From positions 29,640 through 93,639 of the forward strand of contig JAGLWF010000005.1 of NCBI GenBank assembly GCA_023133595.1: a DNA stretch of 64,000 bases. Reading direction: 5' to 3'. This DNA comes from Nanobdellota archaeon. GTDB taxonomy: Archaea; Nanobdellota; Nanobdellia; Woesearchaeales; WJKV01. The notes under the pieces were generated by a model. The model was not told where the DNA came from and made no database searches. It saw only the letters and a program-made list of their open reading frames with translations. The first letter of the stretch is position 1. The number at the start of each line of letters is the position of its first letter. Below are positions 1 to 60,437 of the stretch, in pieces. The position numbers and the translations under genes were made by a program.

Positions 1-3000
1 CCGCTTGTTTCCATACGGCACAAGTGTATCGCTTGCACTTATCACCCCGTCACCATCAACATCGTGGTACAATGTCATGTTAAGTTCGTATCTTCCAGCA
101 GGATATTCCTCCTGCGCACTAGTAGCATCACGAGATATTTTTTGCTTGATTGGTTTTCCTAATGAACTTCCTTTTACATCACCAGCTATTAATATAGGTA
201 TTTCATCCGATGAAACAGCTTCGATTGTATAACTGATGGTTCCAACTTTGAATGAAGCGCTGTCTGCTGCTTCATTTTTACAATCTACAGTATACCCGCT
301 CGAAGTGCATTTTATTTTTTTGTTCACAACATCTGCATGCTGAAGTTCCATGAATGTGATCGCACGTTTCACACCAGTAAGATTCTGCGGTGCAATAAGT
401 TCAGCAGTGAAAGTTTTTGTCTCGCCTGCTTCTATATAGATCAGCTCCCTGAATCCTAGACGAGAGATTTGTATCTTATCCCCTTCCCAGACAAGAACTT
501 CTGCTGGCCCGCCAACAGCTTCTCCGAATTGCAGTAGTTTTGCAACATGGATTCCTCGCGGATCCATTGGATTGACTTTGAATTTTTCCAATATTTTTCT
601 GTCATTCTTATTTGTCTCAACAACATTGTTTGGTTTCTTAAGATTGTAAGCAAGATATAATTCTGGAACAGCGCCTGTTCCTTGAATCTCTTCAAGCATC
701 GGAGAGACAGCACTGATCAATGAACGTGCAAGCACATTGTTTCCAGGATAATACGAAGATACTGCTGGCGTCAATCGTGTCCCTTTGAACTCGATTGCCT
801 GCAGACCGCCTGCGATTGTCTCACAGATAATACCTGGAGGTACAAGCTGGAAGTGACACTGTGCAAGGAATGGTGATTTTCTTATGATCTGTTCTTCTTT
901 GACTTTTCTCTTCACTTCGTCACCGACTTGGTATGTAAGATCAAGCACAGCCAGGTTTGCCCAGTACTTTGCATGCTCATCGGTATAGAACAAATTCTTT
1001 TCCAGACTCTGATCAGAATCAACAAAAATGCCTTCTTCGTATATCAAGGTTGGAGCGCCTGAAGGGCAGTATTCGCCGCCAGCCTTGCTCTTGTCACATA
1101 CTATTCTCAGATTTCCAGAGACCCTCTGTCCGCCTGATAAGATTCCTAGTGTCAGATAATAATTGATTGCTGCTTCTCCTGTGAACGGGTCCCATGCTGC
1201 GAATCTTGATTCTGGAATCATTGGTCCGATGACAGGTGCAACTGCAACACGTGTTGCCTGCTGAAACACATTCCTTAAGTCAGACCAGTCCTGGGTGATC
1301 GCACCGATACAAGCTTTATGCACTAACTGCATTGGTGTCAGACCATACTGATTCTGGATGAGTGCGCTGTATCTTGCCTTTAATCTATTATTCACTTCCT
1401 GGAAATTTCCCCTGAAGACAGAACCTTCTCCACTGTCAAGAGAACCAGATATTCCTGTTCCAATAATCTTTTTAATCGCCCATGTCACAAGGTCACAGAC
1501 AAACTGCGCAAACAATCTTTCACAGTAACCTCCGCGCACTTCACCGATCATCGCCTGCTGCAAACATTTTTTCATTCCCTGGGTTATTCTTAAGAAGTTT
1601 GAAAGATGCCCTCGCACACCAGATACGCATCCGCATCTTAGTGATATGAAAATATCATCATAAGGATTTACCTGTCCATCATCATTCACACTGTCAGCAT
1701 TGTCAGGGAAACATTTTGTCTCGTGGAAACCAGGAGGTCCTTCTGAATAACAGCCGACACTTGCAGACTGTGCAGATGCTGCATTATATTCTGCCTGTGT
1801 CATCGTGGTGCACGCATAACGTACAGTGCCAGCTTCGTATAATTGCGTACCAGTGCCGGTTCCTCTCTTGAATAATAACGGACGTTTTGAAGTATTGACA
1901 GATCTTATCTCAATCGCATTCTGTCCAGGAGGGCATACTGGCTGTCCACCTATCACTGCTTTTTCTCTTGATACATATCTATATTGTGCTGACATATCTG
2001 CTTCACGCGATTCAAATGTCACAGAACCTTCGATTTTTGCAATTGGTTTTTCTTTCTTGATGTCAGCTGCATTGAAATAAGATTCTTTTTCTTCGTCATA
2101 GATAAATCTCTCTCCGCGCTTGTCTGTTACAATTTTGTTCATATTCGCACAGTCAGGAGGGATTGTCGGACACCATACCCTATCACAGATCATGAATGTT
2201 CGTTTCATATTAGCAGGAGATGCGCCTCCGCCAAGATAGGACAGTAAAGTAGAACCAACACAACCCGCTGTCAGAGCAAGTGTTGCTTCTTCTGCAAACT
2301 TTGTCGCATCTTCAAGGAATTCAATCCAGTCATCCAGAAGCTCAAGCGTATCATTGATCATCTCAGGTGTCAGGAACTTTGTATAATCAAAAGGAGTTTC
2401 CAATCCGACTGCGTGCTGGATAAAGATAGGTTCATTCATCGACGCTTGCCCCAACTGATAGGATACCATTGTTCTTAGTGAGAAATCAATCTGCATCCCT
2501 GTTCCAGTATTTCCGATCTCACCTTCTCCAAGATCATTCTTAACGTCTTTAAGGCCTTGTTTTATTGGCAGGACACGAAGTTTTGTCATGACAAACAATT
2601 TATTCTCATCTTCATTATAGAATGTCTTTGTCTCTTCTACTTTTATATATTTATTATCAAACTTATTCTGGTCAAGAGTTGCAGTAGCCTGAATATTTTT
2701 CAATGACTCTGTGGTCGGACCAGTATAATACAGATCATAGAGGACAGAAACAGGAACTCCTGTTGACTGCGGTGCCATCAGATTGCTGCTGTAGACAGTG
2801 TTTGGTATTGTCTGTATTCTTCCAGGCTTCCACATCATAGAGCCTGGTTCGAACTGTATTGTACGTTCTTCTGTATATTCATTTCCAGCTTCGTCAAACA
2901 CAACAAATAATATCCTGTTAGGAGACACTGAAAGCAGTTTCTGCTCCATCTGCGTAGCTCCAGGTGTTAACGGAGTGTACGTTTGTGCCAGAGCAATCTG

Positions 3001-4200
3001 CGTGCTGAACTCAGAATCTTCTCCACTATTGATCTCTTTTGCACGGCCAACAATCGCACCACCAACTCCAATTTCAAATTCAGTCATATACTCGTGTACA
3101 CCTTGCGCACGAATCTCCTGTATTTGTATAGTATTATTATTTCCAACATTAAAGATTTGTATCCTGCACTTAGGTTCTGTTGTGTTTCCAGCAAGAGTCA
3201 CAATCGAGAAATGCTGGTTCTCAGTAAAGATCATAGTATCAAGGTTTAGTCTACATGGAGTATTGTCGACTTTTATCTCAAATGTATGCGTTGCAATGTT
3301 TCCAGCAACATCTGTTGCTTCGATTGTAAGATTATGCTCGCCAGAACCAACATCAACTATTGCATCAAACTCTTTGTCTGTGACTTCAATATCAATTGCA
3401 GGATTATCATCAACAACGGCTCTTAATGTTGCTTCTTCACTAAGTGAACCAATGATCGGAATCACAGAACTGTTTCTTACTTCCTGGATCTCTGAAAGAA
3501 AAATTCTTGGCGCGGTCACGTCAATGACAATTGTGCGCTGTTCTTCCAGAATATTTCCAGAAGGATCAGTGAATCGTATTGTGACCTCATTATATCCTAG
3601 AACTCCTTTGAAGACTGTTTCATACAATTTAACAGTCGCAGAAAAGAGGCCATTTCCATCAGCAACAACAGAGAAACCGCCGGTTTCCAGTATCTGTGCC
3701 GGGAACCTGTCACTGTTGATAAAGATGCGGACAGTTGCACCTGGTTCTGTTATACCTGTTATTGTCAATGTATCTGTTTTGATCTTCGGAGGGACATCAC
3801 CCAAGGTTTCTCCTGTTTCTATTGATGTGTTTATCACAGTCGGTTCAACAACAATATCCTGTCTTGTGACAAAGGTCAATCCAGATCTTACATCATCCTC
3901 GTTATCATTTGCAGATTCTATCTGCAGATCATAGACAGCACTTTGGTTCAGCCCAGTTAATACTATCTCGTGCTCTGTGAGCAGAGCAGAATCCTCTTCA
4001 ATATTATTTAGATTATTAATACCATATTTCACTGTGCTGTTCGCAGCATCGTCTGTATCCCACTTCACTGTTGCGCTCGTTCCAGTGATATCAACAACTT
4101 GCGGATTTGATATCTGTAATGCATACGCACTTTGTATAGTTATTCCTAGCATTAGTACTATCAAAAACAATGTCAATGTCCATCTTTTGTTTTTATTCAT
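1..4200 (-). CDS. Giant secreted surface protein, partial. The N-terminus is in the window and the ORF runs off the left edge at >=1400 aa. Signal peptide MNKNKRWTLTLFLIVLMLGITIQSAYA, then an Fn3/Ig-like domain, a Cys-rich module and a C-terminal Ca-binding DVDGDGVISASD motif.
   Basis: Manual reverse-complement translation from ATG at 4200-4198, which overlaps the TGA of the upstream gene (ATGA). Reading frame checked open at 4200-4000, 1680-1561 and 120-1. No competing minus-strand ORFs in the ORF track. The plus-strand 378-aa ORF is low-complexity antisense. Confidence 0.7.
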   Translation of the reverse strand, partial: MNKNKRWTLTLFLIVLMLGITIQSAYALQISNPQVVDITGTSATVKWDTDDAANSTVKYGINNLNNIEEDSALLTEHEIVLTGLNQSAVYDLQIESANDNEDDVRSGLTFVTRQDIVVEPTVINTSIETGETLGDVPPKIKTDTLTITGITEPGATVRIFINSDRFPAQILETGGFSVVADGNGLFSATVKLYETVFKGVLGYNEVTIRFTDPSGNILEEQRTIVIDVTAPRIFLSEIQEVRNSSVIPIIGSLSEEATLRAVVDDNPAIDIEVTDKEFDAIVDVGSGEHNLTIEATDVAGNIATHTFEIKVDNTPCRLNLDTMIFTENQHFSIVTLAGNTTEPKCRIQIFNVGNNNTIQIQEIRAQGVHEYMTEFEIGVGGAIVGRAKEINSGEDSEFSTQIALAQTYTPLTPGATQMEQKLLSVSPNRILFVVFDEAGNEYTEERTIQFEPGSMMWKPGRIQTIPNTVYSSNLMAPQSTGVPVSVLYDLYYTGPTTESLKNIQATATLDQNKFDNKYIKVEETKTFYNEDENKLFVMTKLRVLPIKQGLKDVKNDLGEGEIGNTGTGMQIDFSLRTMVSYQLGQASMNEPIFIQHAVGLETPFDYTKFLTPEMINDTLELLDDWIEFLEDATKFAEEATLALTAGCVGSTLLSYLGGGASPANMKRTFMICDRVWCPTIPPDCANMNKIVTDKRGERFIYDEEKESYFNAADIKKEKPIAKIEGSVTFESREADMSAQYRYVSREKAVIGGQPVCPPGQNAIEIRSVNTSKRPLLFKRGTGTGTQLYEAGTVRYACTTMTQAEYNAASAQSASVGCYSEGPPGFHETKCFPDNADSVNDDGQVNPYDDIFISLRCGCVSGVRGHLSNFLRITQGMKKCLQQAMIGEVRGGYCERLFAQFVCDLVTWAIKKIIGTGISGSLDSGEGSVFRGNFQEVNNRLKARYSALIQNQYGLTPMQLVHKACIGAITQDWSDLRNVFQQATRVAVAPVIGPMIPESRFAAWDPFTGEAAINYYLTLGILSGGQRVSGNLRIVCDKSKAGGEYCPSGAPTLIYEEGIFVDSDQSLEKNLFYTDEHAKYWANLAVLDLTYQVGDEVKRKVKEEQIIRKSPFLAQCHFQLVPPGIICETIAGGLQAIEFKGTRLTPAVSSYYPGNNVLARSLISAVSPMLEEIQGTGAVPELYLAYNLKKPNNVVETNKNDRKILEKFKVNPMDPRGIHVAKLLQFGEAVGGPAEVLVWEGDKIQISRLGFRELIYIEAGETKTFTAELIAPQNLTGVKRAITFMELQHADVVNKKIKCTSSGYTVDCKNEAADSASFKVGTISYTIEAVSSDEIPILIAGDVKGSSLGKPIKQKISRDATSAQEEYPAGRYELNMTLYHDVDGDGVISASDTLVPYGNKR

Positions 4201-6176
4201 CTTATCACAGGAGCGTAGTTCTCACTCTTTGGTATGACCGTATTCTGCCAGAACCGTGCAAACCCTGACATATCTTCTGGCATTATTGGTGATGCAATTG
4301 CATAGAATCGTAATTCATTCGCAGTTGTCAGCTGATTTCTTGTGATCTGCCAGTCCGGGAAGTAAAGACCTGCAAAAGGCATGTCATCTTTCATAACTTT
4401 CACGTCAACTGTATATGTTGCATCATCATAAACCAGTTCAAATGGATTAGCTTTTGTGAAATCAGTCTCAGGGAGGAATGCTGCATCATCATAATCATCA
4501 CTTGCAACTGAAATATAAGCACGTTCATCTTCTTCTAATTCCCTGATCTGCATTGTTCCTTCTGTAAAGTCTAGTATGTAGAGTGAAACAGGAAGTTCTT
4601 TCAAAGGCACCAACTTAACAGGCGGGATCTGTGCAATCGGGGATTCGATCGTGACTTGGCTTACTGATTCCTGATAACCATCCTTGTTCACAACAAGGAA
4701 ACCATTCACACACTCAGGGAATGATGTCTCAAGCATTGGTTCAGAACCAACTATCATCACACCTTCAAAACTCGGGAATTCTGTATCTCCAAGGTCGCAC
4801 GAGAACTGCACGCATTCATATCTTACATTGGCATTGTCAAGGAACTCAGAAGTTACTTTATCCTGAACATAGATCACACGTTTGTAGAGCCTGTTTGCAC
4901 AATACTCTTCGCTTGAAACACTATATTCATATTCTGCAAGCTTGAAAGGACTTATGTATCTTTTTGCTGAATTCTTCTCTAGAATGACAGGAGTTGCAAA
5001 TTGGAATATCAAGCCAGATTCATCCTGCAGCTGAAACATTACAGGAAATTCAATATCATATCTATGATGATATACTTTCACACACGATCCTATTAATGGG
5101 ATTGCGAGATCAAAACCTTTTACAACATCTCCATCACTAGGCTCAACATCAAGATTCATTCCAAATGTTCTGTCGTATAAAACATTGATCGCAACATCTG
5201 GATAATTTCCAACGCCAGTATCTAGAGTATAGAATTCATCATAATAGTCAAGATAATTGCTTTTTACAGTACGATAACTTTTACAAACGCCAAATTCATC
5301 TTCTGCCTGGCAGATCTCTTGTACTATTTCTGGATTCTCTTCAAACCTTTGGTTCTTTATTGAATCATCAAATGAAAAATACCTGAAATTATATTTTACA
5401 AGCTGCTGCAGAGCAGGGATAATGTCTAACTGTATGCTCCATCTCTCTCCTTCTCCGCACCTGAAATCATAACCATCCAATGGGATGTGCGGGCTATCGT
5501 CTGCACCGTCAGCAACTGCAATAATATCCATTGTCGCTTCTTCTAAGAAAGCATTCTCATTCTCGTACTCCATGATAGATTTTGCAAACTGATATAGTTC
5601 TCCAAATCGTGTTGGCATTGCTTTTCTAAATGCACTTACATCAACAGTATTTTCGCCAATCGATATCCGCAGCGGATAATCAAGCTGGACAGAGATATCA
5701 TTTTTATGAATATCCACATCAACATTCAACACGCCTATCTCTTCTATTTTCATCTGTGGAAATTCTGCAAATTCATTGATACAATCAATAATATCTTTTT
5801 TGACATACTCTGCAAGTTCATTCTCAATATCTGACTGCCGCGGTACTAAAGATTTGCCATTATACCACCACATTGGAACTTTAAGTGCAGACGGTGGCGG
5901 TGGAAGATAACCAGGTCTTCTTGGATCTCCAAACAATAATTGATCAGGCAGTTCAATATACCCTCCCTGCATTGCTGCCAACGCAACTCCTTCTGCCAAT
6001 GTATCCTGTGTGCATTCTTCAATAAACATACGCACTGATTTAGTCTCTGGGAAACGTATCTCTGTGTATTTCTGCGAGATAGAGCCTCTATAATAGATTA
6101 AGATAAAACCAAGTATCACTATTATGATTCCTATTATTATGAATAAAGTGACTTGTCCTCTTTTTGTTTTTTTCAT
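4197..6176 (-). CDS. Large protein (659 aa) with a class III, prepilin/archaellin-like N-terminal signal: MKKTKRGQVTLFIIIGIIIVILGFIL. Paralog 1 of a three-member family.
   Basis: ORF track. N-terminus fits the [KR]G-Q-hydrophobic class III motif. A post-TM motif FIEEC...QGGYIELPD...LKVPMWWY is shared with the 15288 and 30083 proteins. Confidence 0.7.
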   Translation of the reverse strand: MKKTKRGQVTLFIIIGIIIVILGFILIYYRGSISQKYTEIRFPETKSVRMFIEECTQDTLAEGVALAAMQGGYIELPDQLLFGDPRRPGYLPPPPSALKVPMWWYNGKSLVPRQSDIENELAEYVKKDIIDCINEFAEFPQMKIEEIGVLNVDVDIHKNDISVQLDYPLRISIGENTVDVSAFRKAMPTRFGELYQFAKSIMEYENENAFLEEATMDIIAVADGADDSPHIPLDGYDFRCGEGERWSIQLDIIPALQQLVKYNFRYFSFDDSIKNQRFEENPEIVQEICQAEDEFGVCKSYRTVKSNYLDYYDEFYTLDTGVGNYPDVAINVLYDRTFGMNLDVEPSDGDVVKGFDLAIPLIGSCVKVYHHRYDIEFPVMFQLQDESGLIFQFATPVILEKNSAKRYISPFKLAEYEYSVSSEEYCANRLYKRVIYVQDKVTSEFLDNANVRYECVQFSCDLGDTEFPSFEGVMIVGSEPMLETSFPECVNGFLVVNKDGYQESVSQVTIESPIAQIPPVKLVPLKELPVSLYILDFTEGTMQIRELEEDERAYISVASDDYDDAAFLPETDFTKANPFELVYDDATYTVDVKVMKDDMPFAGLYFPDWQITRNQLTTANELRFYAIASPIMPEDMSGFARFWQNTVIPKSENYAPVIR

Positions 6177-6177
6177 C

Positions 6178-6858
6178 TTAGTTCTTTATTGTCAAATACA
6201 GGTAATACCTGCTCCACGCAGAGTATAATAAAAATACTAGCAACAATATTGATGCAAATACTGCTGAACCAAGAGTAAATGTCCAGCTAGATATTGCAAC
6301 AGCAACAAAAAATATGACTGCCATCAACAGGTATGCTAGCAATACCCTCCACTGAAAAAATGTGGAAAATACATTGAATATTGTCTCTTTAGGTTTCTTT
6401 ATCATGTTTGTCCTAGCAATCGAAGTGAACATGAGATAGAGGAGCCAGAAAATGAATAATAATGGACTTCGCCACACATCTTTGATTGCTTGGATTATGA
6501 AAACAAAGATTATGAACCAAGGAATAAGCCAGATCAATGAAAACTTGAACCATGTTTTCATGTCCTGTGTTCTCCCGACAGTGTACTTATATACAAGACG
6601 CTTGAAGATTGTAAGGTTCACTACTTGCAAAACAATTGCAACTGCTGATAGTAAGATAAAAGATATTATGTACCACGTCCCTGAATTGACTGTCAATGGG
6701 TATGCGTCTGTGATCCTGCCAAAATACATGTAGTAGAATGCTACGATCGCAAAAAATATTAACAGGCAGATCAGATCAAAGAGCATTGCATGGAATAATC
6801 TAACATTAAACGTTTTGAATGATTCTATAAACATAAACCCCTTTTTTTTTACTGCCAT
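6178..6858 (-). CDS. Polytopic membrane protein, about 6 TM helices, unknown function.
   Basis: ORF track. Hydrophobic helices throughout. Lies 1 nt from the flanking gene inside the operon. Confidence 0.55.
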   Translation of the reverse strand: MAVKKKGFMFIESFKTFNVRLFHAMLFDLICLLIFFAIVAFYYMYFGRITDAYPLTVNSGTWYIISFILLSAVAIVLQVVNLTIFKRLVYKYTVGRTQDMKTWFKFSLIWLIPWFIIFVFIIQAIKDVWRSPLLFIFWLLYLMFTSIARTNMIKKPKETIFNVFSTFFQWRVLLAYLLMAVIFFVAVAISSWTFTLGSAVFASILLLVFLLYSAWSRYYLYLTIKN

Positions 6859-6864
6859 TTTACC

Positions 6865-9800
6865 CTATCCTGTCTGATTGCCAAAAGTTCCTGCTCCTGT
6901 CGGCACTGTTGTAGCAGAACTTCCGCCTGCATGATAACCGCTGTGTTCAGCAGCATCTCCAGGAACATAATTTTCTTCAACAATCGGTTGTGCAAACGCT
7001 ATCAATGAACCAAATTCTCCAGATGGTTCTCCATCATCATCTAATATTTCTTCTTTATAACATAATGCAGCCCATTCAACATCAGGAGGACCATAGACAG
7101 GAACATAATCTGAAGATGTGGATCCTTTCTGCACAGCTACATCTGTTGTTCCCTCGATCACCAAACAACTAGAATCACAATAGATTGTATTTGCACAGAC
7201 AGTATACATAATGTTTGTATTCGACGCTCTTAGCATCCAATTGAACTGGTACAACGTACTGCCGTCAGGCATTGTCTCTCTTTCCACCTGCAACCGTTTG
7301 GAAACATCTACATTACCAGCAATATCAAATCCAATCTGCACATCATCAGGGAAATCCTCATCAAGAGTAGCTCTACAAATCAATCTCTCCCATTCTTCTG
7401 GATGAAACCATTCGTTCTCCATCCACCGGTCAACTTCTGCTTTCCACTTTGGACACGCTGCCTCCCATTCTTTATTTATTTTGTCACTATAATATTTTCC
7501 AACACCTGTCGGTCCTCTGATCAGAGTGCCGAGGAATCTCTGGAACCTCTGCCGTGTCTGGATTTTCTTTTCCAAATCTCTTCCTTTCTTATCTTCTGCA
7601 AATTCTGGCGCGACAAATGTGGTCAGATCTGTTTCTTCGCATCTCTGCTGCCCTCGTACTTCATAACACGCCCAGTAATTATACTGGACTTCACCTTCTG
7701 CATCTATTGACGCTGTAGTATAGACCCGTACATTGCTTCCAAGATCAATATTATAATTAGCAAGTGCAATATCACCAGTGTATGTTCCATCCGGCTGTTT
7801 TGTCCTAGTGTAGAGAAGTGAGCTTTCAATAGCTTCCTCTTCTTTATTATAGACAGCACCATCTTTATTCACGTACATTTCATCTCCAATAGAGAATTTA
7901 CCAAATCCTAATCCAGCTCCAAAAGGTTTTAGCTTTGCCTTTAGCTCATCACCATCATGTTTATTAGGTCTCATAAACACAGCAATATCAGAATCTTCTT
8001 TGCCAATCTCTGCAACATAACCAATCTCTTTATCATCCTCAATCTTTCCATTGTAAATCATATTTCCATCATGTATCAGTTTCAGATCAGAAACTTGATT
8101 TTGTCTACTTATTTCATCTGGTGTTGGTGTTAACGCTGTTCCTTCTCTGAGAGCATTATAATAAACATAAGGCGAAGCATACTCGCGCTGCTTTCCTTCT
8201 TCATCCTTGAACTTTCCTTTTGGCACACGATACATATCTTCATTCCGCTGTGTACTGCCCTCTGTAATAACATAATAATTACCAGTCTTTGGATCTTTGA
8301 CTAGTGCTGTTGTTTTTCCAGTCTCGGGATTCACCCACGAATCGACTTTAGTCCATCCTTCATAGCGTGTACCTTTCTTTCCAACATTATTGAAGATGTT
8401 TGTCGCTCCTTCCTTGACAAGAGTGTTTATCTGTCCTGCCACTTGTTTATATTTTCCTGTTCTGATTGCTTTAATGAAATTTATTTTTTCATCATCATAG
8501 ACACCTTGTGCTCCTGCTTTATCCAAATTTGCAAGATATTCAACAAGCTCTGGATTTTTCTGTGCAAGATCAGGATTGTCACTTAATAATTTTTTAGCTT
8601 CATCCTTTTTTCCGCCTGCAATCAACAATGCCAATGCTTGAGATGCTGCCTGATCACCCCCTGTCGCTGCCTGATAACCAAGAGCTGCCACTTCTGAATC
8701 TGTCAACGCCAGTGTAGCTTGCTTCGTGTTTGGATCAATACTATTAATCTTTGCCTGTAGAACACTTTTTGATCTGGTATCCATCATCTGGGTTACTTCT
8801 GCAAGGGTCTTTCCTTTTGTCTGATCAGGAGCAAGGCCCATTGTCTTTGCAGTGGAACGCACACTAATAACTTTGGCTTCCTGGTCAAACTCACCAATAG
8901 ACTGGAATACAGAGAAACCTTTTACACCAGCATCACTCCCTGTTAATTTGATATAATTCTCTCTATACTTTTTATATTTAGCCTCAAACTCTTCTTTTTC
9001 TTTTTTCCAAGCATTTATCTTGGCATAATCAGGCAATGGTTTTTTCAATTCTTCATCGATCTTCGCATCCAGACCATCATAGTAACCTAAATCAGCAGGT
9101 CTAAGTCTTGCTGCAGGTGGAGGAGCAACACCAGCATATGCTTTGCTTATAGCTTCTGCATCAGAAGTTTTAAGGTTTTTCAACATCGCAACACGCTGCC
9201 TGTCAAACTCTGCACGTGCTTCTGCGCCTGTCTTCTTTTCAAGCGCAGCGTCAAATTTTTCTTTAAGGTCTAATTTCTGTGCTTCAGGTAATTCAGCAGC
9301 ATCAATCGCATCCTGGAACTTCTTTATTTCTTGTCTGACTTTTTCTCTTTCTTCCAGATCTTTTGCAGCAGCCTCGAACTTCTTCGGATCTTTGGTTTCT
9401 TTTGCTTTCTCCATCAAAGCAGCTCTTGCTTCTGCCTCATTTGCACCATTCTTAACCATTGCTTTAACAGATTTGTCTATTGTCTTTCGCCGTTTATTGA
9501 CTTCGTTTTTTATTTGCAATGGAGTCTTGCCAACTCTATCAACACCATACCTGTTTGCAAGTTTTTTGTAAATTTCAGCTTCAAAAATCTTAGCATCCCA
9601 CGGAGTAGCTGATCCTCTGGCAGCTCTGACAACATCACCATATTCAGTATCAGTCAATCCTGCCTCGAGTGCATCTTTCTTTATTTTCTCGCGCTTTGCC
9701 AGCTCACTTTTTATCTGGCTATGCGTCTTGCCTTCCAAACTAATGCCATACCCCATGGATGCTTTCTGCTCAAGTTCATGTTCTGCAAGAACTTTCTTTA

Positions 9801-10953
9801 ATGCTGCGAGATTTTTATCCTTTCCACTTTTTTTGAGTGCCTGCCATTTCTCATTCATCCGCGGGTCTTTAGTAGCTGCCAGGATTTTATCTCTGGCATC
9901 ATCTATCTGTTTTTGGTATGCTTTATCAGCTGCCAATGCATTCCGTTTTGCTTGGATTTGTCTATCCAGTGATTTTTTTCTATCCGGATCATCTTCAGCT
10001 TCAGCTTCAATTAAAAGCCGCACAATATCTGCTTCTTGCTTCAATATCTTTTCAAGCTCTTGCTTTTCTTTTGTCAACCTTCGAACTTCTGCGTTGTTCT
10101 TTGCAGCTCGCGCTTCTGCAATCTCTTGTTCCAGCCTTGCAACATCTTTTGCAAGAGCATCTCGCTCTGCAATTTCTTTCGGCGCTCCAAGAGCTGCTTC
10201 ATCAGTTTTGCGCTTATTGTATGTATCTTTTAGTGCTGCAAGCTTTTCTCTTTGCTTTTTCAATTTCGCAGCTTCACTTGTAAGACCTGCTTTTTTAGCC
10301 TGCTCTTCTGCTTTTTCTAGTTCTGTTATTGCAGTATTTAAACCACTGATCGCAGTATCATACTGATATAATTTTGCGTTATCTTTTGCACTTGCCGACG
10401 CTGTTGCAGCTCCAGTTGTTGCAGTTTTAGCTCTTGCTGTTGCTTCTGTTGTTTTCTTTAATTGTTCATCTCGCTTTTTCTTCTCAGGACCAAAATATTT
10501 TGCATTCCCATCAGATTTAATATTATCAGTTACTGTGACTGGTGTAGAATATCCTGGAACTGAATCCTTGAACATACTATCTGCATATTTATTCTTGTTT
10601 TGATTGACAACTCTCACAAATGAAGCATAATCCATATTATCGCCACTATCATCATATTCAAAATACTGCCATCCTCCCCATGATCCAACCCAGACCTGCA
10701 TATATTCAGTACCATCATCTTCCTCAACTCTCCATTGGCTGTATTTTTTCTGTATCTTGCCTTTTGTATAGACAAGATCTCCATCAGTATTGACATACAT
10801 GGTCTCAGCTTCAGCCTCTGTGATAGATTTCTCATTTCCTAGACCAACCCAGTGATACGGTCGTAGATCAACAGCAGAAACAAACACACTGCTAACTAGA
10901 ATAAACACTAGAAAAATCATGATCAATATTGATAACTTGTTCTTCATCTTCAT
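6865..10953 (-). CDS. Giant secreted protein (1362 aa): signal peptide, about 500 aa of Ala/Lys/Glu-rich coiled coil, and a globular C-terminal region ending ...SSATTVPTGAGTFGNQTG.
   Basis: ORF track. N-terminal signal MKMKNKLSILIMIFLVFILVSSVFVSA. Heptad-like AKE-rich region. Start overlaps the upstream gene stop (ATGA). Confidence 0.7.
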   Translation of the reverse strand: MKMKNKLSILIMIFLVFILVSSVFVSAVDLRPYHWVGLGNEKSITEAEAETMYVNTDGDLVYTKGKIQKKYSQWRVEEDDGTEYMQVWVGSWGGWQYFEYDDSGDNMDYASFVRVVNQNKNKYADSMFKDSVPGYSTPVTVTDNIKSDGNAKYFGPEKKKRDEQLKKTTEATARAKTATTGAATASASAKDNAKLYQYDTAISGLNTAITELEKAEEQAKKAGLTSEAAKLKKQREKLAALKDTYNKRKTDEAALGAPKEIAERDALAKDVARLEQEIAEARAAKNNAEVRRLTKEKQELEKILKQEADIVRLLIEAEAEDDPDRKKSLDRQIQAKRNALAADKAYQKQIDDARDKILAATKDPRMNEKWQALKKSGKDKNLAALKKVLAEHELEQKASMGYGISLEGKTHSQIKSELAKREKIKKDALEAGLTDTEYGDVVRAARGSATPWDAKIFEAEIYKKLANRYGVDRVGKTPLQIKNEVNKRRKTIDKSVKAMVKNGANEAEARAALMEKAKETKDPKKFEAAAKDLEEREKVRQEIKKFQDAIDAAELPEAQKLDLKEKFDAALEKKTGAEARAEFDRQRVAMLKNLKTSDAEAISKAYAGVAPPPAARLRPADLGYYDGLDAKIDEELKKPLPDYAKINAWKKEKEEFEAKYKKYRENYIKLTGSDAGVKGFSVFQSIGEFDQEAKVISVRSTAKTMGLAPDQTKGKTLAEVTQMMDTRSKSVLQAKINSIDPNTKQATLALTDSEVAALGYQAATGGDQAASQALALLIAGGKKDEAKKLLSDNPDLAQKNPELVEYLANLDKAGAQGVYDDEKINFIKAIRTGKYKQVAGQINTLVKEGATNIFNNVGKKGTRYEGWTKVDSWVNPETGKTTALVKDPKTGNYYVITEGSTQRNEDMYRVPKGKFKDEEGKQREYASPYVYYNALREGTALTPTPDEISRQNQVSDLKLIHDGNMIYNGKIEDDKEIGYVAEIGKEDSDIAVFMRPNKHDGDELKAKLKPFGAGLGFGKFSIGDEMYVNKDGAVYNKEEEAIESSLLYTRTKQPDGTYTGDIALANYNIDLGSNVRVYTTASIDAEGEVQYNYWACYEVRGQQRCEETDLTTFVAPEFAEDKKGRDLEKKIQTRQRFQRFLGTLIRGPTGVGKYYSDKINKEWEAACPKWKAEVDRWMENEWFHPEEWERLICRATLDEDFPDDVQIGFDIAGNVDVSKRLQVERETMPDGSTLYQFNWMLRASNTNIMYTVCANTIYCDSSCLVIEGTTDVAVQKGSTSSDYVPVYGPPDVEWAALCYKEEILDDDGEPSGEFGSLIAFAQPIVEENYVPGDAAEHSGYHAGGSSATTVPTGAGTFGNQTG

Positions 10954-11702
10954 TCTATCTCAAACTCGAATGTTTTTTCATCTTTGACAAATGGAGTGAT
11001 ATCCGTCGCTCGGATCTTCAGGCAGTATGTTCCTCGCAAGTCAAACATTGACACTGGTTCTCTGAAGGTACGGGTGATTGTTTGATACTCACTGTCTTCG
11101 ACCTCGATGGTTGCAGCAGTGCTGTATTTGTTGTTAAACCAAGTAATCTTCTTCCCTAACGGATCTCGCAGGTCAATATTCTCTAAAAACCCGATAAAAT
11201 GCCGTCCATCTTCAAAATCAACAGTCATTGTATCCAACTCGTGGACTATCTCAATGTGATCTCCTACTTTTGTGAACTTGAAATTTCTGATATTGAATGC
11301 AGCACCCATATCCTTGAATCCTTGCTCAATCTCGTCTTCAAGCGCTCGCATTTCTTTTTCATCCTCTGGAATGATTTCCATTAGTTCAGGTTCTTCTCCT
11401 ATGATTGTCTCTAAAAATTTTGCTTCTCTTATCTTTGCCAATTCTTCCTCGGTAATATCCTTCTGTGTGAAGTTTAATGCTAATGCCAAGACAATAATAA
11501 GTATGACAATGACAATCACACATAACCAAAACCGTTTATGTGCAAACGTGCGGGTATGTGCTTCGTGCACAGGCGGCAGCCGTTTATACCGCGGTGGTTG
11601 CGGAGCTTTTCTCGACGGCATTCTTGGACCTGGAGTTAGCTTTAACAATTCTTTTCTTCTCCTTTCCAGTTCTCTTTTGTATCTATCAAACTCGTCTGCC
11701 AT
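10950..11702 (-). CDS. Single-pass type II membrane protein (250 aa): basic, Pro-rich cytoplasmic N-terminus, one TM helix, acidic extracellular domain.
   Basis: ORF track. TM segment FWLCVIVIVILIIVLALALNF. Translationally coupled on both sides. Confidence 0.55.
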   Translation of the reverse strand: MADEFDRYKRELERRRKELLKLTPGPRMPSRKAPQPPRYKRLPPVHEAHTRTFAHKRFWLCVIVIVILIIVLALALNFTQKDITEEELAKIREAKFLETIIGEEPELMEIIPEDEKEMRALEDEIEQGFKDMGAAFNIRNFKFTKVGDHIEIVHELDTMTVDFEDGRHFIGFLENIDLRDPLGKKITWFNNKYSTAATIEVEDSEYQTITRTFREPVSMFDLRGTYCLKIRATDITPFVKDEKTFEFEIE

Positions 11703-11703
11703 T

Positions 11704-14700
11704 TTAACTTGTTAAATTTCCAGCACCTGCAGGCACTGTTGTTGAAGTGTCCTCTGCAAGAGGAGCAGCTTCACCCGCTTCTCTTTCCCACTTCTCTAAT
11801 TCATCAAATGCGTCTTTGCATTGATCACTATCTTTATCTGTGAAACTTTTGAAATCAACATCAAACTTGATCGCATTCTCGACAAATTCGTCCCACGACC
11901 ATGCAAGCATTGCAGCATCAAACACACCGCACGCAAGTACCCATGCATTCTTCTCAACATTCAATAGTTTAGCATCAACCTGGTTGCTCTCTGTACATTG
12001 TTCAATGCTCTCAGCAGTATTGAACTGCGTTATCTTTTTTCCGCCAGCATAAGCTTCCTGCTGCATCTTGACCTGGTTATCAAAATTAGTGCACAACGCA
12101 TCTCGCGAAGCAGCAACTATTCTTCCTGGCAATTCTTTAATTATATCACGCGACATGCCTGCGATCTGTTTTGCCAGCATAAAGCCAGGGAATAACTGCA
12201 TCACAGGACCCCAGAAGAACAGACATTCATTCTCTGCATGCGCAATGTCACAAGCAGCAGTGCTGAAGCCTGCTTTTGCATTGTCAGTGATACATCGTGC
12301 ATGGATACACTGCAATTGCCTGTACTTGTTCAGGTTATAGACAACACCCGGAAGGCATAAGCAATCAACAGCAACAATATAATTATCCATTGGATTCAAC
12401 CTTGTCTCGAAATTAATCTCTTTCAGATAAGAAGTGTCGATCTGTCCTACATCTGCCATTGACACATCAGCAGCACCAGTAACATCAGTGACAGCAAGAC
12501 CAAACAGACTTCCAAGGCTGCCCAGGATACCTCCATCATCTTTCTTTCCAGTGCTAGGTTTCTTCTCTGGAGGCGGTTCTGCAACAGCTTCTGTCGGCTG
12601 TGTTGTTCTTGCTTCCATCCGGGTTTCATCCTCTGATTTCATCTGCGATGGAACTGGGGCTCCAGGTTCTCCGACTCCAACTTTTCCAAGGAAGCTTGCG
12701 ACAGGCTTATCAAAAGCTTTTGGTATGCTCTGTATCCCAGTGATCCCAAATCCTTGGCTGCACTGGTTGCATAATATGAATGCACAGACTCTTCTTACAA
12801 ATCCGCCAATATCATCTTCTTCTTTGCCCAAAGATTTGCCGCCGAATAACGCGTCTGTGAATTCAAACTTATCCGGTTTGATACCGCGCGCTTTTGCAGC
12901 TTTTTCATATGCTTCTTTTGTGTAGAAATAATCTTTATCATTCGGCCAGATTGTTTCTTTCAGGACACGCAGATAACAATCAAGTGTCAGGAAACCCTGC
13001 CATAATTCTTCACCAGCACCAGTAGAAGTCCATTCAACAATCATTGAAGCTGTATAGACAATAGGTTTCATATCCTGTACAACAGTATATATCCTCGAGA
13101 TCTCTTCTCCTATCTTACATATCTTTCTTAGTGTGTCTAGCCAACCTTCGATCTTTGTGACATACTCAAAGAAGTTTGTATTCACGCGCTTCTCAATATC
13201 GTGGAGTTTCCTGATTACATTGTCTCCTGGATCTCCGATTGGAAGATTGTACAATTCAATTGATGCTGTCACATTATCCATCTCAGGGTTAAGGAATACT
13301 GTGTTTCCTCTTGCAATAAGAGAATATATTGTGCAGTTGAATTCTATATTCTCAAGCTTTGACGTAGCTTCATCCAATAATATTTCGAACACGAGAAGGG
13401 AATCATCCATTTCTTTTCCAATGATGTAAGGATTTTGAGTATCCGTGCCTGCATACAATACAGTATCAAGACCAGTGCACTGAGGAGACTTATCAATAAC
13501 CTCAACCATATCAGAATAATCAAAGTGCAGTGGAACAAAGACTTTTGTTGGAATCTTTGTCGAGATCCTTCGATCCAATTTCTGCGGGATCACACTTCCA
13601 ACTGTTATTGCAACTTCATTCGGCACTGTTGTGATATCAGAACTGTAGACAACAACAGGATAAGAAAACACACCGTCATTTCCAGCAAGATCAAAGACAG
13701 TGAAGTCAACATTGCCCTGGGTATAACTTGTGACCAGGCCAGAGACTTCAAACTCGCAGATAAAATCATCACCAGACATTGCACATGTCCCATTGATAGG
13801 ATCTATTTGAGTTGATATCGCGCTCACATCTGCAATCGCATTCCTCACTCCATTTATTTCTGTTCCAGTAACATAAAATCTTAATGGCTCTCCAACGCCT
13901 GCGTTTGGTGCAAGTGCTGATTGTGTTACATTCGCAATCACAGGGTCGGTAAGGTCAACTTCGAACGACTGGCTTTTTGTTGCCAGCTGTCCGAACCTGT
14001 CGCGCACATTGACCACAACTGTCTTGCTTCCTTCTGGTCCAGCAGCATCAAGATTGTACCAGTAACATTTGCTCTCATTCATATCGCACAGGTCTGCGAC
14101 TTGTCCAGAACTATAGACTGGATTTATTGCCCGCAGGTCAGCAAGAGTCTGCGAAGTCTCAAATCCAACACCAGCATCTGCAATCTTAGCAATTAAAGTA
14201 TTATCAGTGCTTCCAAAGTAATTTCCATTCTCGGTCTCAATAGCACTGATAACAGGTTCTTCTGAATCAACACTGACAGATATTGTGAATGGACTATTCA
14301 ATACATTTCCAGCAGTATCAGTTGCAGTCACTGTTCCGCTAAAACCAGTTGTCTGCGCAGTCACAGTCGGCACTACACTCCATCTGCATCGATGCACACC
14401 GCCAGTTTCTGTGCAAGTGCCAGGTGCATTTGCTCCTCCACCAAATGCAGTGATATCTGCCCGTACATCATCAAGCGCAACATTCTCAGATATGTCAATC
14501 TCAAGCATGAATGACATTGAACCAACAGTGACACTTGCCACAGGAACATTGTTCAATGTCAGTCTGGCATCCACTAACTGCGGCTCATCCACATCAATTG
14601 TGAGTGCCGAGGATGTCTGTGCCAATTGCAGATGACCCAAACGATCGAATACCCGCGCATAGTATACATAGTCACCTGACGAAGTGGGTGCTTCGAGAAC

Positions 14701-15297
14701 AATTGTATCGTCCAATTCGCATTGGTCAATACCTTGTATTGTATAGGTTTCTGATGCAACTATGTTTAGGAAATTCGCATCGTCTGAGATTTCAACACCT
14801 GCAATTCCTGCACAATGACCAGAATCTCCGATTTCATCATCTGCAACAATATGTGCAACAAGATCACTGCCAGATGTTCTGTTTACTGCAAATGAAGTTA
14901 CTGTCGGTGCACTGCCATCAACAACATAAGCTTCTGATTGAGTGACACCACTGTAGGAAATGTGATAATATTCTGTTCCTTCCTCTAACGGAAGGACAAG
15001 AGATAAAGTACATAAACTGTTGCTTCCCTCTGGGACACATGATTCAAAAGAGATATTATGGAACTTGACAGCAGTAGGATCTACTCCTGCCTGCGCGATC
15101 TTGATATCAATATAGACATTTGTGTCTCTTGCATCAATCACTCTATGGATGTCATCGCTTCCATAGATGCTGACTTCTGTTATCAGGCCTGCAAAAGTAG
15201 AACTTCCCTGTGCAAATGCAAAGCTTGCATAGAACGGCAAAGTTATGATTAAGAAAATCATCAACATGCATCTACCATATCCTTTTTTCATTTCCAT
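11704..15297 (-). CDS. Giant secreted protein (1197 aa) with repeated Ig-like beta domains, a Cys-rich module and the C-terminal tail ...STTVPAGAGNLTS.
   Basis: ORF track. Signal peptide MEMKKGYGRCMLMIFLIITLPFYASFAFA. The Cys-rich CLCLPGVVYNL...C module aligns with CGCVSGVRGHL...C in the 1..4200 protein. Overlaps the 15288 gene by 10 nt. Confidence 0.7.
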   Translation of the reverse strand: MEMKKGYGRCMLMIFLIITLPFYASFAFAQGSSTFAGLITEVSIYGSDDIHRVIDARDTNVYIDIKIAQAGVDPTAVKFHNISFESCVPEGSNSLCTLSLVLPLEEGTEYYHISYSGVTQSEAYVVDGSAPTVTSFAVNRTSGSDLVAHIVADDEIGDSGHCAGIAGVEISDDANFLNIVASETYTIQGIDQCELDDTIVLEAPTSSGDYVYYARVFDRLGHLQLAQTSSALTIDVDEPQLVDARLTLNNVPVASVTVGSMSFMLEIDISENVALDDVRADITAFGGGANAPGTCTETGGVHRCRWSVVPTVTAQTTGFSGTVTATDTAGNVLNSPFTISVSVDSEEPVISAIETENGNYFGSTDNTLIAKIADAGVGFETSQTLADLRAINPVYSSGQVADLCDMNESKCYWYNLDAAGPEGSKTVVVNVRDRFGQLATKSQSFEVDLTDPVIANVTQSALAPNAGVGEPLRFYVTGTEINGVRNAIADVSAISTQIDPINGTCAMSGDDFICEFEVSGLVTSYTQGNVDFTVFDLAGNDGVFSYPVVVYSSDITTVPNEVAITVGSVIPQKLDRRISTKIPTKVFVPLHFDYSDMVEVIDKSPQCTGLDTVLYAGTDTQNPYIIGKEMDDSLLVFEILLDEATSKLENIEFNCTIYSLIARGNTVFLNPEMDNVTASIELYNLPIGDPGDNVIRKLHDIEKRVNTNFFEYVTKIEGWLDTLRKICKIGEEISRIYTVVQDMKPIVYTASMIVEWTSTGAGEELWQGFLTLDCYLRVLKETIWPNDKDYFYTKEAYEKAAKARGIKPDKFEFTDALFGGKSLGKEEDDIGGFVRRVCAFILCNQCSQGFGITGIQSIPKAFDKPVASFLGKVGVGEPGAPVPSQMKSEDETRMEARTTQPTEAVAEPPPEKKPSTGKKDDGGILGSLGSLFGLAVTDVTGAADVSMADVGQIDTSYLKEINFETRLNPMDNYIVAVDCLCLPGVVYNLNKYRQLQCIHARCITDNAKAGFSTAACDIAHAENECLFFWGPVMQLFPGFMLAKQIAGMSRDIIKELPGRIVAASRDALCTNFDNQVKMQQEAYAGGKKITQFNTAESIEQCTESNQVDAKLLNVEKNAWVLACGVFDAAMLAWSWDEFVENAIKFDVDFKSFTDKDSDQCKDAFDELEKWEREAGEAAPLAEDTSTTVPAGAGNLTS

Positions 15298-17447
15298 TGT
15301 GGCTGTATCAGGCTGCCTTTCTTCTTCGACATCTCGTCAATATTTCCAAGACGCGCAAGCTCTTCGTGATTTGTCGGTTTCTTTGATTTTAGCACAAAGA
15401 ACAATAATTCATTTTTCTGGTCAAGCTCTGCTTTCTCAACATGCCAGTTATTGTTCAGCCCAGCATTAAGCGCAGCTCCTCCCAACGGCGCGGGTTTTAC
15501 TTCAACTTCTTCTAGTGTTACATATTCGTCTCCAAACTTCTTTGTTGCTTCTGGAATAACAACTCCAGTATTATCAAAATATCGCGCGTCAATAGTATAA
15601 TCTCCAGGCACAAGTTCCAGATCATTCACTTTAGTGTCTTCATCAAAGATCATGGTTGTGCTGAATGGTTCCTCCCACGGATCTTCTGAAACTTTTGCAA
15701 CAGTGACATAGACAAATGCATCTTCTAAATCATCATGCTGCTGCAATAACTGAAGATATTGCTGATAGTTCACACTTCCATAATCAAACCTGTCAAATTG
15801 CTCGACCATTTCTGGGGATCTGACCTGGATGTTTGTTTTCTTTGTCACAATCTTTGGAAGTTCAGCATTAAAGGTATAGACTTGTCCGTATTTTGTATTC
15901 AATGGGAAATTATGATTAAAGTATCCTTCTTTTGACAGTTTCAACACACCACCATCGCAGATAGGGAATTTGCCGACATATTCTCCACCAGCATCAGTGC
16001 TTCCAATGTAGACACTATCCTCTCCACAGTAGAATCTTACCTGCACATCGCTCACTATCTTGTTGCTGTCATCTTTTGTATTGATCGTGATATCACCAGA
16101 CAATCTTTGGTTTGGATGACCAAATAAATTTGCTCCACCAACACCAAGCTCGACAACATAAGGAACACGCAGTTCTCCTGCAAGGAGTGGTTCATTGTTT
16201 CTCACATTAGCCTCCATCGCAAACATCAATGAGTAACCATCTCCATTGAATGCATACGGGTCCCGCACTTCAACAACAACAGGATACGATAAGTCGTAAT
16301 AGAAACGGTACGACTGCGTGAAAATATCAATTATCTCCTGGAATGATCCACTGTGCTCCTCTGGCCTGATCAATTCTCCTGAACTAGGAGTGATGTCAAA
16401 ATGCATTGGCCAGTTCAGGTAGAACATGTTCACATCTAGTTCTTCATAATCCTTTTCAGGCGGAAGAACATTGAAAACAAAACCATAATGCACTCCTTGC
16501 CTGATATCAAAACCAGGCCTGTCATCTTCTGGATACGGATAGAAATTATGAGTTCTCGGAACAGTTATCATGTTGACATACGTTGTCAGTATCTGTTTTA
16601 TCAATTGTTCAACATTAAACTTGACCCACATGACTTTCTGCATTCCCATGTCAGCCTCTGCTATCGGAGGAAGCCCTTCCTTCTCAACACGACCGTACAA
16701 TGAGATCAGGTTCATTGTGTTATATTCTAGGAAACCACCTTCTGCCTGTGCATTGACAATCTCAACACCCATGTTAAACATCTGTCGCAGATTTACTTGA
16801 TGGTTTATGTAGAAATCTTTGAAATCATAGGATAATTCTCCTCGTGTTACTCGCAGTGGATAAGAAAGCGTGACCCGGACGTCGTTTGCAGTTATTGCTG
16901 TCTTTGAACCGATTGATCCCAACTCTTCAATCTCATAACCTTCCTCTCTGAATGCTGTCATTGCCAGTAAACATTCCCTTACATTGGTCTCGACATAACG
17001 ATCAATCATATCCTGCATCTGGACAATTGTCGGTGCTTTGCCAGAGAATAAACAATCTGTGCATCTATTGCTGCTTTTCAGGTAATGCCAGTACGGAACT
17101 TTCAATCCTCCTGGCGTGAACTCAACACCATCAGACTCAGTCGGATCATACTGGAAATCAAAAACAGTTCCTCCAGTGAGCTCTGGATCATCTAATGAAA
17201 TCCATCCGCCCTGCCGGCCCATAAGTTCCAGTGCTTCTTTGCTGACACGCCTTCCGCACTCTTCAACAAACAAAGAAATTGGCTGCAGTCGGACAGGACC
17301 AACAATCACTCTTTCTTTAGCTTCTTCTGTTATCTTTGAAGGTGCAGTTGCAATGAAATATATGACAATAGCTGCGACAATTAAGAGAATTAAACCTATA
17401 ATTATGTAAATAGTCACTTGTCCCTTCTTGTCATTGCTGTTAAGCAT
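15288..17447 (-). CDS. Large protein (about 719 aa) with a class III prepilin-like signal: MLNSNDKKGQVTIYIIIGLILLIVAAIV. Paralog 2.
   Basis: ORF track gives 15288..17492. The internal Met at 17447 is preferred because TATA boxes at 17512-17554 would place the transcription start inside the longer extension. Shares FVEEC...QGGWISLDD...LKVPYWHY with paralog 1. Confidence 0.65.
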   Translation of the reverse strand: MLNSNDKKGQVTIYIIIGLILLIVAAIVIYFIATAPSKITEEAKERVIVGPVRLQPISLFVEECGRRVSKEALELMGRQGGWISLDDPELTGGTVFDFQYDPTESDGVEFTPGGLKVPYWHYLKSSNRCTDCLFSGKAPTIVQMQDMIDRYVETNVRECLLAMTAFREEGYEIEELGSIGSKTAITANDVRVTLSYPLRVTRGELSYDFKDFYINHQVNLRQMFNMGVEIVNAQAEGGFLEYNTMNLISLYGRVEKEGLPPIAEADMGMQKVMWVKFNVEQLIKQILTTYVNMITVPRTHNFYPYPEDDRPGFDIRQGVHYGFVFNVLPPEKDYEELDVNMFYLNWPMHFDITPSSGELIRPEEHSGSFQEIIDIFTQSYRFYYDLSYPVVVEVRDPYAFNGDGYSLMFAMEANVRNNEPLLAGELRVPYVVELGVGGANLFGHPNQRLSGDITINTKDDSNKIVSDVQVRFYCGEDSVYIGSTDAGGEYVGKFPICDGGVLKLSKEGYFNHNFPLNTKYGQVYTFNAELPKIVTKKTNIQVRSPEMVEQFDRFDYGSVNYQQYLQLLQQHDDLEDAFVYVTVAKVSEDPWEEPFSTTMIFDEDTKVNDLELVPGDYTIDARYFDNTGVVIPEATKKFGDEYVTLEEVEVKPAPLGGAALNAGLNNNWHVEKAELDQKNELLFFVLKSKKPTNHEELARLGNIDEMSKKKGSLIQPQWK

Positions 17448-17511
17448 AGTAGAAGGACTAAAGTGTTCTCTAGCACCCCTTCTCATGTTCACCTTTTTGG
17501 AGGATTCAGCC

Positions 17512-47735: not shown

Positions 47736-47818
47736 TCCTTGAGTATTAAAATAACTCAATATCATTCCGAAATCCTTTTATATTGAGTTCCATCCTTCGC
47801 CTTATCGGAGAGGAAATG

Positions 47819-59267: not shown

Positions 59268-59271
59268 ATTA

Positions 59272-60381: not shown

Positions 60382-60437
60382 ATTTATAACCCCCATATGG
60401 TGTATATAGCTATTTAAGGACTTTATATACTTTTCGT

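Follow-up and report, generated by a model that had tools for sequence, protein, structure and literature searches.

Giant surface proteins paired with pilin-like proteins, and defined by an undescribed and very widespread domain, are encoded by a seven-gene operon at positions 1-17492 of a 64,000-nucleotide stretch of DNA from a Nanobdellota archaeon (assembly GCA_023133595.1, contig JAGLWF010000005.1, positions 29,640 to 93,639 of the forward strand; this whole stretch is hereafter termed the window). The genes abut or overlap by a few bases and, together with all features described within them below, lie on the minus strand, where they are transcribed in the order P1, C, a gene for a 250-amino-acid (aa) membrane protein, B, a gene for a 226-aa multi-pass membrane protein, P2, and A. 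Here, A, B, and C denote the giant proteins, and P1 and P2 their pilin-like partners. The favored reading, to which a probability of about 0.6 is assigned, is that A and C belong to one ancient paralogue family, that the operon builds a cell-surface complex, and that a short C-terminal tail of B and C (TTVPxGAG followed by N-x-T) is a separate glycosylation or docking tag and not a sortase-type signal. The source genome is metagenome-assembled (Nanoarchaeota/Woesearchaeota; source sample SRR13892600 / ERZ23498665): the entry 'hypothetical protein KAT43_02870 [Nanoarchaeota archaeon]' has the same sequence as protein A, whose nearest relatives come from metagenome-assembled genomes (MAGs) of Candidatus Woesearchaeota. 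The module, the P family, the proteins at the position of B, and the operon itself are all unannotated, with no membership of a named family shown, and neither the family nor the operon was found described in the published literature.

The relationship between A and C is carried by a Cys-rich module located at residues 840-915 of A (positions 1456..1683; VNPYDD...RCGCVSGV...C...G...C...C, the span being the coverage of the module hidden Markov model, HMM) and at residues 963-1041 of C (12175..12411; LNPMDN...DCLCLPGV...C...C...C). Residues 855-902 of A (RCGCVSGVRGHLSNFLRITQGMKKCLQQAMIGEVRGGYCERLFAQFVC) and 979-1025 of C (CLCLPGVVYNLNKYRQLQCIHARCITDNAKAGFSTAACDIAHAENEC) have the same C-x-C-x20-C-x13-C-x8-C spacing without a gap, preceded in each case by NP-x-D. 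Such a common module had been proposed in a sequence-only reading of the window, and the peptides quoted there do exist, the one from A being encoded at 1638-1495 and not at 1680-1561, which translates to DGQVNPYDD...KKCL. Pairwise BLASTP between A and C is marginal (E 0.001, 21% identity over 70 aa), a result that, as a single comparison, would also agree with chance or compositional likeness between unrelated Cys-rich segments; homologues of A and of C were therefore gathered and their profiles compared. With hhalign, 12 A-family sequences aligned to 3 C-family sequences at E 8e-6 (probability 84%), and the A family aligned to 16 C-like sequences from genome loci at E 3.6e-5. Circularity was addressed by searches in which the target's own family was excluded from the HMM and the database consisted of all six-frame open reading frames (ORFs) of the window: an HMM of A-family sequences only recovered C at E 6.9e-6 (next ORF 0.45), and an HMM of C-like proteins without the window's lineage recovered residues 803-920 of A at E 2e-6 (next 0.58). 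A jackhmmer search from C converged on the A family at C residues 950-1095, and the module HMM scored A at 105.6 bits and C at 90.9 bits, with no match in B. Coincidence as the source of the likeness is already contradicted by these reciprocal profile matches, the hhalign result, the identical ungapped spacing, the paralogy of the genes upstream of A and C, and the conservation of the operon, and it is given next to no weight. By these profile comparisons, A and C are homologous through the module, well beyond chance, and represent distant, ancient paralogues of one large family rather than mere carriers of a motif. The earlier reading was thus right about the module of A and C but understated their relationship; B has no module.

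A further Cys motif of A lies upstream of the module at residues 672-684 (2149..2187; CDRVWCPTIPPDC) and is invariant in the A subfamily, with columns C88, D89, R90, C93, and P94 unchanged in alignment A5, the closer A-family set. The C-like family has CDLVLC co-linear with this C-D-R-V-x-C-P motif. An extension of the A-C homology to the upstream C-D-x-V-L-C motif was considered and set aside, being plausible by eye with weak profile support (E 0.004, probability 8%).

The module defines a large family. A profile of 82 columns, searched against 1.84 billion representative proteins, matched 2116 cluster representatives (E<=1e-3), 553 of them at E<=1e-10, most of the matching proteins being 1500-2200 aa long (median 1772 aa). 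The top matches contain one mid-protein module and, like A, have an N-terminal signal peptide ahead of an fn3-like domain (...SALEISNV...). All named members are entered as 'hypothetical protein' from Woesearchaeota or Nanoarchaeota, and in these sequence searches the family has so far been seen solely in this group of DPANN archaea. The module signature, NP-x9-(C)-x-C-x20-C-x6-G-x6-C-x8-C, extends over about 80 residues, of which one Pro, four Cys, and one Gly are invariant, and is situated between an N-terminal array of immunoglobulin (Ig)/fn3-like domains and a C-terminal beta-sandwich. It has no match in Pfam, NCBIfam, or a PDB sequence-profile search, Pfam and NCBIfam detecting just the Ig-like domains. 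Homology within the A family spans approximately residues 1-1130 of A, the C-terminal third being variable; its conserved core, as given by phmmer and jackhmmer coverage, comprises the module, a helical region, and the beta-sandwich (residues 812-1156; 733..1767). A wider core (residues 585-1140) holds about 16 conserved cysteines, including those of the invariant C-D-R-V-x-C-P. As a separate observation, the variable C-terminal part of A includes DVDGDGVISASD (residues 1380-1391, window 28-63), a D-x-D-x-D-G calcium-binding loop of the dockerin/EF-hand type on which the Pfam scan found no family match.

Two AlphaFold2 models were computed, from 20 sequences (model 1, predicted local distance difference test score, pLDDT, 65) and from 30 sequences (model 2, pLDDT 72). 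In both, the module consists of two long antiparallel helices (pLDDT 40-76) followed by a beta-sandwich (pLDDT >90), suggesting with low confidence that the module is a helical hairpin. A Foldseek match to an archaeal fusexin (E 7e-3, TM-score 0.13) was judged too weak to be meaningful. In the mechanism proposed here, the four module cysteines would form two disulfides that staple an extracellular hairpin. The same four residues might instead bind a metal ion or cluster, giving a metal-stabilized or redox-active domain. The presence of exactly four invariant cysteines across about 2,000 clusters is compatible with such a site, and the source organisms are presumed to live anaerobically, in a setting less favorable to extracellular disulfides. 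This alternative nevertheless appears rather unlikely, as the proteins are secreted by a Sec signal, the density of conserved cysteines in the 556-residue core is typical of disulfide-rich extracellular domains, CxxCH and CxxC metal-site motifs are absent, and the cysteines lie 8-20 residues apart on two helices, unlike those of known Zn knuckles.

The genes immediately upstream of C and A are paralogous as well: C lies directly downstream of P1 and A directly downstream of P2, and P1 and P2 match each other over their full length (BLASTP E 3e-25). Their N-termini (P2 KRGQVTLFIIIGIIIVILGFILIYY, P1 KKGQVTIYIIIGLILLIVAAIVIYF) consist of [KR]-G-Q-V-T and a hydrophobic helix, and 34 P-family N-termini keep [KR][GAS][QM][VI][TS] and the hydrophobic stretch. 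This pattern is assigned to the archaeal class III (prepilin-type) signal peptides by a by-eye match to a FlaFind-type pattern. In PDB sequence-profile searches, neither the A core nor the P family had a meaningful match, the sole one being a designed protein at E 0.011 for the P family. In KAT77, a Nanoarchaeota MAG, the methionyl-tRNA synthetase (MetRS) gene is followed by genes for proteins of 760 aa, 1051 aa (C-like), 477 aa, 267 aa, 631 aa, and 1673 aa (A-like). Each of the four proteins P1, C, P2, and A pairs with an orthologue of its own there, which argues that the duplication of the pair of P gene and giant gene is ancient. A homology between B and the 477-aa protein of KAT77, suggested by position, was not significant (z 2.2, 13/300 shuffles) and was not retained.

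Conservation of the operon was assessed by a synteny scan of species-representative genomes with alignment A5, involving ORF calling and iterative annotation. The scan yielded 35 loci, mostly titled Woesearchaeota, Nanoarchaeia, or Nanobdellota; 15 were titled 'uncultured Methanosarcinales', which is taken as a mislabel. P2 stands directly upstream of the A-like gene in 35/35 loci with upstream sequence, and the order C-like gene, B-position gene, 226-like gene, P2, and A-like gene recurs in the 15 loci with a detected C-like gene, one of which (L022) has no separate 226-like ORF. The B-position proteins of other genomes are much shorter (359-964 aa) and lack the K/E/A-rich region of B. Homologues of the 250-aa protein occur solely in L001, L002, and L003 and are confined to the two genomes whose B and C proteins bear the tail (KAT43 and FT6_98, GCA_019323355.1), and in other Woesearchaeota operons the C-like gene is directly followed by the B-position gene. 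Two observations concern the arrangement itself. In one Woesearchaeota genome, the 226-like gene and P2 form a single 950-aa ORF (L021:2372-5224), in which the 226-family HMM matches residues 3-263 (E 3e-75) ahead of ...MNKKSQLTVFIILG...; this ORF is either a genuine fusion, and then an argument for interaction of the two proteins, or an artefact of the assembly or of a stop codon. In addition, MetRS (window 17566-19722; also L003 and L006) is the gene immediately preceding P1 in KAT43, FT6_98, and KAT77, three genomes that are fairly divergent, indicating a stable position of the surface operon beside a housekeeping gene.

The anatomy of the operon points to the cell surface. P1 (734 aa, 15288..17492) carries a class III-type signal (...KKGQVTIYIIIG) and directly precedes giant protein C (1197 aa, 11704..15297), made up of a Sec signal with Ig-like repeats, a helical region, and both the Cys-rich module and the tail. 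The 250-aa protein (10950..11702) has a single transmembrane segment by hydrophobicity scan. Giant protein B (1362 aa, 6865..10953) combines a Sec signal, a K/E/A-rich region, and a Cys-containing C-terminal domain with the tail, and is followed by the 226-aa protein (6178..6858), which has at least five hydrophobic segments and is conserved in the operon. P2 (659 aa, 4197..6176) has the class III (prepilin-like) signal MKKTKRGQVTLFIIIG, and its stop overlaps the start of A by 4 nt. Giant protein A (1..4200, start at 4200) has its last 153 codons beyond the window and was completed to 1553 aa from the source contig, recovered by exact protein look-up; it comprises a Sec-type signal peptide, fn3/Big_13 Ig-like domains, the Cys-rich core, the beta-sandwich, and the variable C-terminus. 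A and C thus both have a Sec-type signal and N-terminal Ig/fn3-like domains, the Pfam Big_13 score of A (28.8) lying above the gathering threshold of 27 bits and that of C (22.7) below it. In the hydrophobicity scan, A, B, and C have an N-terminal hydrophobic segment only and no C-terminal anchor, and a membrane-protein gene directly follows B and likewise C.

Because the giants carry export signals, lack anchors of their own, and are encoded beside membrane proteins, it is inferred that the operon products assemble into a cell-surface complex. In this complex, the pilin-like and membrane proteins would anchor A, B, and C, which have no anchor of their own and would be exposed adhesin-like or envelope subunits, and the conserved Cys-stapled core would serve as an assembly or anchoring interface, while the tail would give B and C a common handle.

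Such a mode of working resembles that of archaeal type IV filament (TFF) loci, in which adhesin-like giants are associated with pilin-type proteins; these loci encode large Ig-fold-rich adhesin-like proteins such as arCOG05616 (subsystems 4G/4I) and the system 2 adhesins (bioRxiv 10.64898/2026.04.22.720090). As in those loci, the giants described here are secreted, rich in Ig-like domains, and presumed to act in adhesion or cell recognition. In contrast to TFF loci, the operon lacks a TFF ATPase, a platform protein, and a prepilin peptidase, and the partners of its giants are globular proteins of 630-760 aa instead of small pilins; the Cys-rich helical module and the duplicated pairs (P1+C and P2+A) are not described for TFF systems. 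P1 and P2 are also comparable to the sugar-binding proteins of the Sulfolobales 'bindosome', non-fibre proteins with class III signals, in being large and globular with a prepilin-type N-terminus. In bindosome-type proteins, [KR]-G-Q/A followed by a hydrophobic helix is used as a membrane or filament anchor (bioRxiv 10.64898/2026.04.22.720090). Unlike them, P1 and P2 have no Pfam or NCBIfam match to a substrate-binding family and are always paired with a giant. Among DPANN archaea, giant surface proteins also include the SPEARE proteins of Nanohaloarchaeota, which are proposed to act in host contact, are far larger, and contain protease, adhesion, and endonuclease domains; nothing in the present data indicates homology to them.

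The last element of the favored reading, the tail, occupies the extreme C-termini of B and C. In B (6871..6912), TTVPTGAG (6889-6912) is followed by TFG, the sequon NQT (6871-6879), G, and the stop, and in C (11707..11742), TTVPAGAG (11719-11742) is followed directly by the sequon NLT, S, and the stop; the sequon residues concerned are Asn1359 of B and Asn1194 of C. The C-termini read ...SSATTVPTGAGTFGNQTG for B (shorter end ...ATTVPTGAGTFGNQTG) and ...TSTTVPAGAGNLTS for C (shorter end ...STTVPAGAGNLTS), and the orthologues in FT6_98 keep the tail (B ...STTIPSGAGTFGYNTTG, C ...TTTTTVPTGAGNLTTVTGQTP). The consensus is [ST]-T-T-[VI]-P-x-G-A-G with N-x-T within 0-4 residues. The observation in the sequence-only reading that B and C both end in (S/A)TTVP(A/T)GAG is borne out, such C-termini being confined to these two proteins in the six-frame translation of the window. 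The tail is not a general tag of the three giants, since the recovered C-terminus of A (...RVPVIASPGASVE), unseen in that reading, contains no TTVPxGAG; among the top 150 family members, the others are without the motif too. Apart from their tails, B and C are unrelated. The two tails align with a score of 39, whereas mismatched tails from 14 genomes score 15 on average and 27 at most. Two metagenome scans, with an alignment of the B C-terminus and with the C-terminus of C, found no relatives, and the tail is restricted to the KAT43/FT6_98 lineage and absent from homologues outside it. On this sequence evidence, the tail is a lineage-specific feature, separate from the module, on two unrelated subunits.

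The identity of the two tails might be without function, left by a recent gene conversion or small duplication of neighboring 3' ends or by a DNA-level element. The B and C genes lie 4 kb apart on the same strand, they share 11 consecutive identical nucleotides (ACAACAGTGCC), and the motif is limited to one lineage, all of which would fit such an origin. On the other hand, synonymous differences between B and C affect 3/7 conserved codons and recur between orthologues (CCG/CCT, GGA/GGT/GGC, and GCA/GCT among the four copies), and the DNA flanking the two tails cannot be aligned, which argues that the conserved entity is the peptide and against recent conversion or a DNA-level signal. The motif has also survived in two genomes that have diverged to a protein identity of 64-79%, with the sequon retained at different spacings. 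A functionless origin is therefore considered improbable. A Shine-Dalgarno or other DNA-level origin was rejected specifically, as the next start codon follows the motif at a distance of 20-45 nt and the motif varies synonymously.

A role in sorting or anchoring, suggested earlier for the tail, would imply a signal that is cleaved and attached to lipid or wall, of the archaeosortase PGF-CTERM, sortase LPXTG, rhombosortase, or glycosylphosphatidylinositol-like type. Substrates of PGF-CTERM/archaeosortase A, such as the haloarchaeal S-layer glycoprotein, are secreted surface glycoproteins with a short conserved C-terminal motif after a Thr-rich stretch. The tails of B and C share this placement at the extreme C-terminus of secreted proteins after a Thr-rich stretch, and their Pro-x-Gly core recalls some PGF-CTERM proteins. 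However, they lack the transmembrane helix and basic end that complete the tripartite signal: only 4-9 residues follow the motif, no hydrophobic run of at least 6 residues occurs in the last 40, and Lys and Arg are absent from the last 10. The core itself is [VI]P[TAS]GAG and not LPXTG. With nothing hydrophobic or basic after the motif, the tail falls outside the definitions of archaeosortase (motif, transmembrane helix, and basic cluster), sortase, and rhombosortase signals. Furthermore, no archaeosortase or sortase domain was detected among the 28 window proteins scanned against Pfam, and A and the other leading family members do without the motif. The sorting-signal explanation is thus close to refuted, whereas glycosylation, the other role that had been suggested, remains plausible.

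Glycosylation of the Asn is plausible in view of the sequon, which follows GAG in 4/4 copies (NQT in B, NTT in FT6_98 B, and NLT in C and FT6_98 C), so that all four tails place an N-x-S/T sequon on an exported protein, as used by AglB, the archaeal oligosaccharyltransferase. In B, the tail sequon is the only one in the protein, compared with 6.0 expected (p 0.014), and FT6_98 B has 2 sequons compared with 8.2 expected (p 0.006); in both orthologues, one of the few remaining sequons lies <=4 residues from the C-terminus. A and C have sequon numbers as expected. An extended TTVPxGAG context is not a known requirement of AglB. The orthologue of B in FT6_98 (L004:87-4217) was located through neighboring genes, and a further homologue occurs in L038; a full-length homologue search returned B alone, the K/E/A-rich region having probably saturated the word filter. 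This region (residues ~150-850, window ~8400-10500) contains 41% K+E+A and 66% K/E/A/D/Q/R/L with no Cys, and probably forms a very long alpha-helical or coiled-coil stalk of about 700 residues, which, if helical, could reach a length of about 100 nm.

Alternatively, the tail may be a docking peptide and not a glycosylation tag, through which one common partner would tether the anchorless B and C, a role for which the lineage-specific 250-aa protein, the 226-aa membrane protein, and P1/P2 are candidates. This possibility is entertained tentatively. It accords with the lack of an anchor in B and C, with the membrane-protein gene directly after each, with the confinement of the 250-aa gene to the tail-bearing lineage, with the position of the motif at a flexible C-terminus after a Gly/Ser/Thr/Ala-rich linker, and with the conservation of eight residues beyond the bare sequon. 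That B is depleted in sequons yet keeps the one in its tail favors glycosylation instead, and the two roles are not mutually exclusive. The reading adopted here, equally tentative and about as likely as docking alone, is that the tail may mark the C-termini of two subunits of one complex for N-glycosylation and/or docking, at the end of a flexible linker.

Several points weigh against the overall reading. The first Cys of CxC is not invariant across the family; the structure of the module is uncertain, given its low pLDDT in both models; and a Foldseek search against the PDB found no structural analogue of the module, only generic matches to fn3/Ig-like sandwiches. A type IV pilus ATPase, a platform protein, a prepilin peptidase, and AglB were not found among the 28 window proteins scanned. 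For the tail, the evidence consists of four sequences from two closely related genomes. The L038 homologue of B aligns as far as ...QPIV.E...P.D.A and then continues without TTVPxGA, keeping G-I-G-N-L...NQTNST, and the tails of C-like and B-position proteins differ in other lineages, where their covariation is weak (p 0.03), and no claim is drawn from it. With regard to these other tails, from L031, L039, L015, L020, and further loci, C-like proteins end in an acidic run followed by G-T-T-P-T-Y-G or G-x-x-P-E-Y, B-position proteins end in C...G-x-G-F-x-T-P-x-x-G-x-D-Y-D-C, and both types have a T-P-x core.

Genes neighboring the operon include those for MetRS, a proteasome subunit, aCPSF1, and TrmB, in keeping with an archaeal source. 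A gene at 28135-29247 matches the cyclopropane-fatty-acyl/mycolic acid cyclopropane synthase family very strongly (CMAS, E 4e-95); such a gene would not be expected alongside the isoprenoid lipids of archaea and may be a bacterial-type acquisition. A full-length MutL homologue with HATPase_c_3, DNA_mis_repair, and MutL_C domains is encoded at 47783-49618; MutL is patchy among archaea. A 314-aa protein (40644-41588) with a bacterial thrombospondin type 3 repeat and EF-hand-like calcium-binding motifs is likely to be another calcium-binding surface protein. At 58131-62460 on the minus strand, three clustered genes encode Peripla_BP_6-type (branched-chain amino acid) binding proteins of 424, 378, and 368 aa, none of which has a TTVPxGAG tail.

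Woesearchaeota and related lineages, which rank among the most abundant archaea yet to be cultured, are thought to live attached to other cells. Since the family comprises more than 2,000 unannotated clusters of giant secreted proteins and, in the loci scanned, sits in one operon with pilin-like partners, it is a strong candidate for the missing machinery by which these archaea build their surface or make contact with hosts. In a more speculative extension, the operon could be an unrecognized and near-universal surface apparatus of Woesearchaeota/Nanoarchaeota, either the main envelope or S-layer-like scaffold or a host-attachment device, in which duplicated pairs of pilin-like and giant proteins would be joined via the Cys-stapled module and accessory subunits in KAT43 and FT6_98 would be recruited or glyco-modified through the TTVPxGAG-NxT tag. 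The module profile and the definition of the operon provide a basis for metaproteomics, cryo-electron tomography, and structure prediction. The tail represents a compact, lineage-specific C-terminal tag common to unrelated subunits; should a role in glycosylation or docking be confirmed, it would show how archaeal surface proteins without an anchor are retained.

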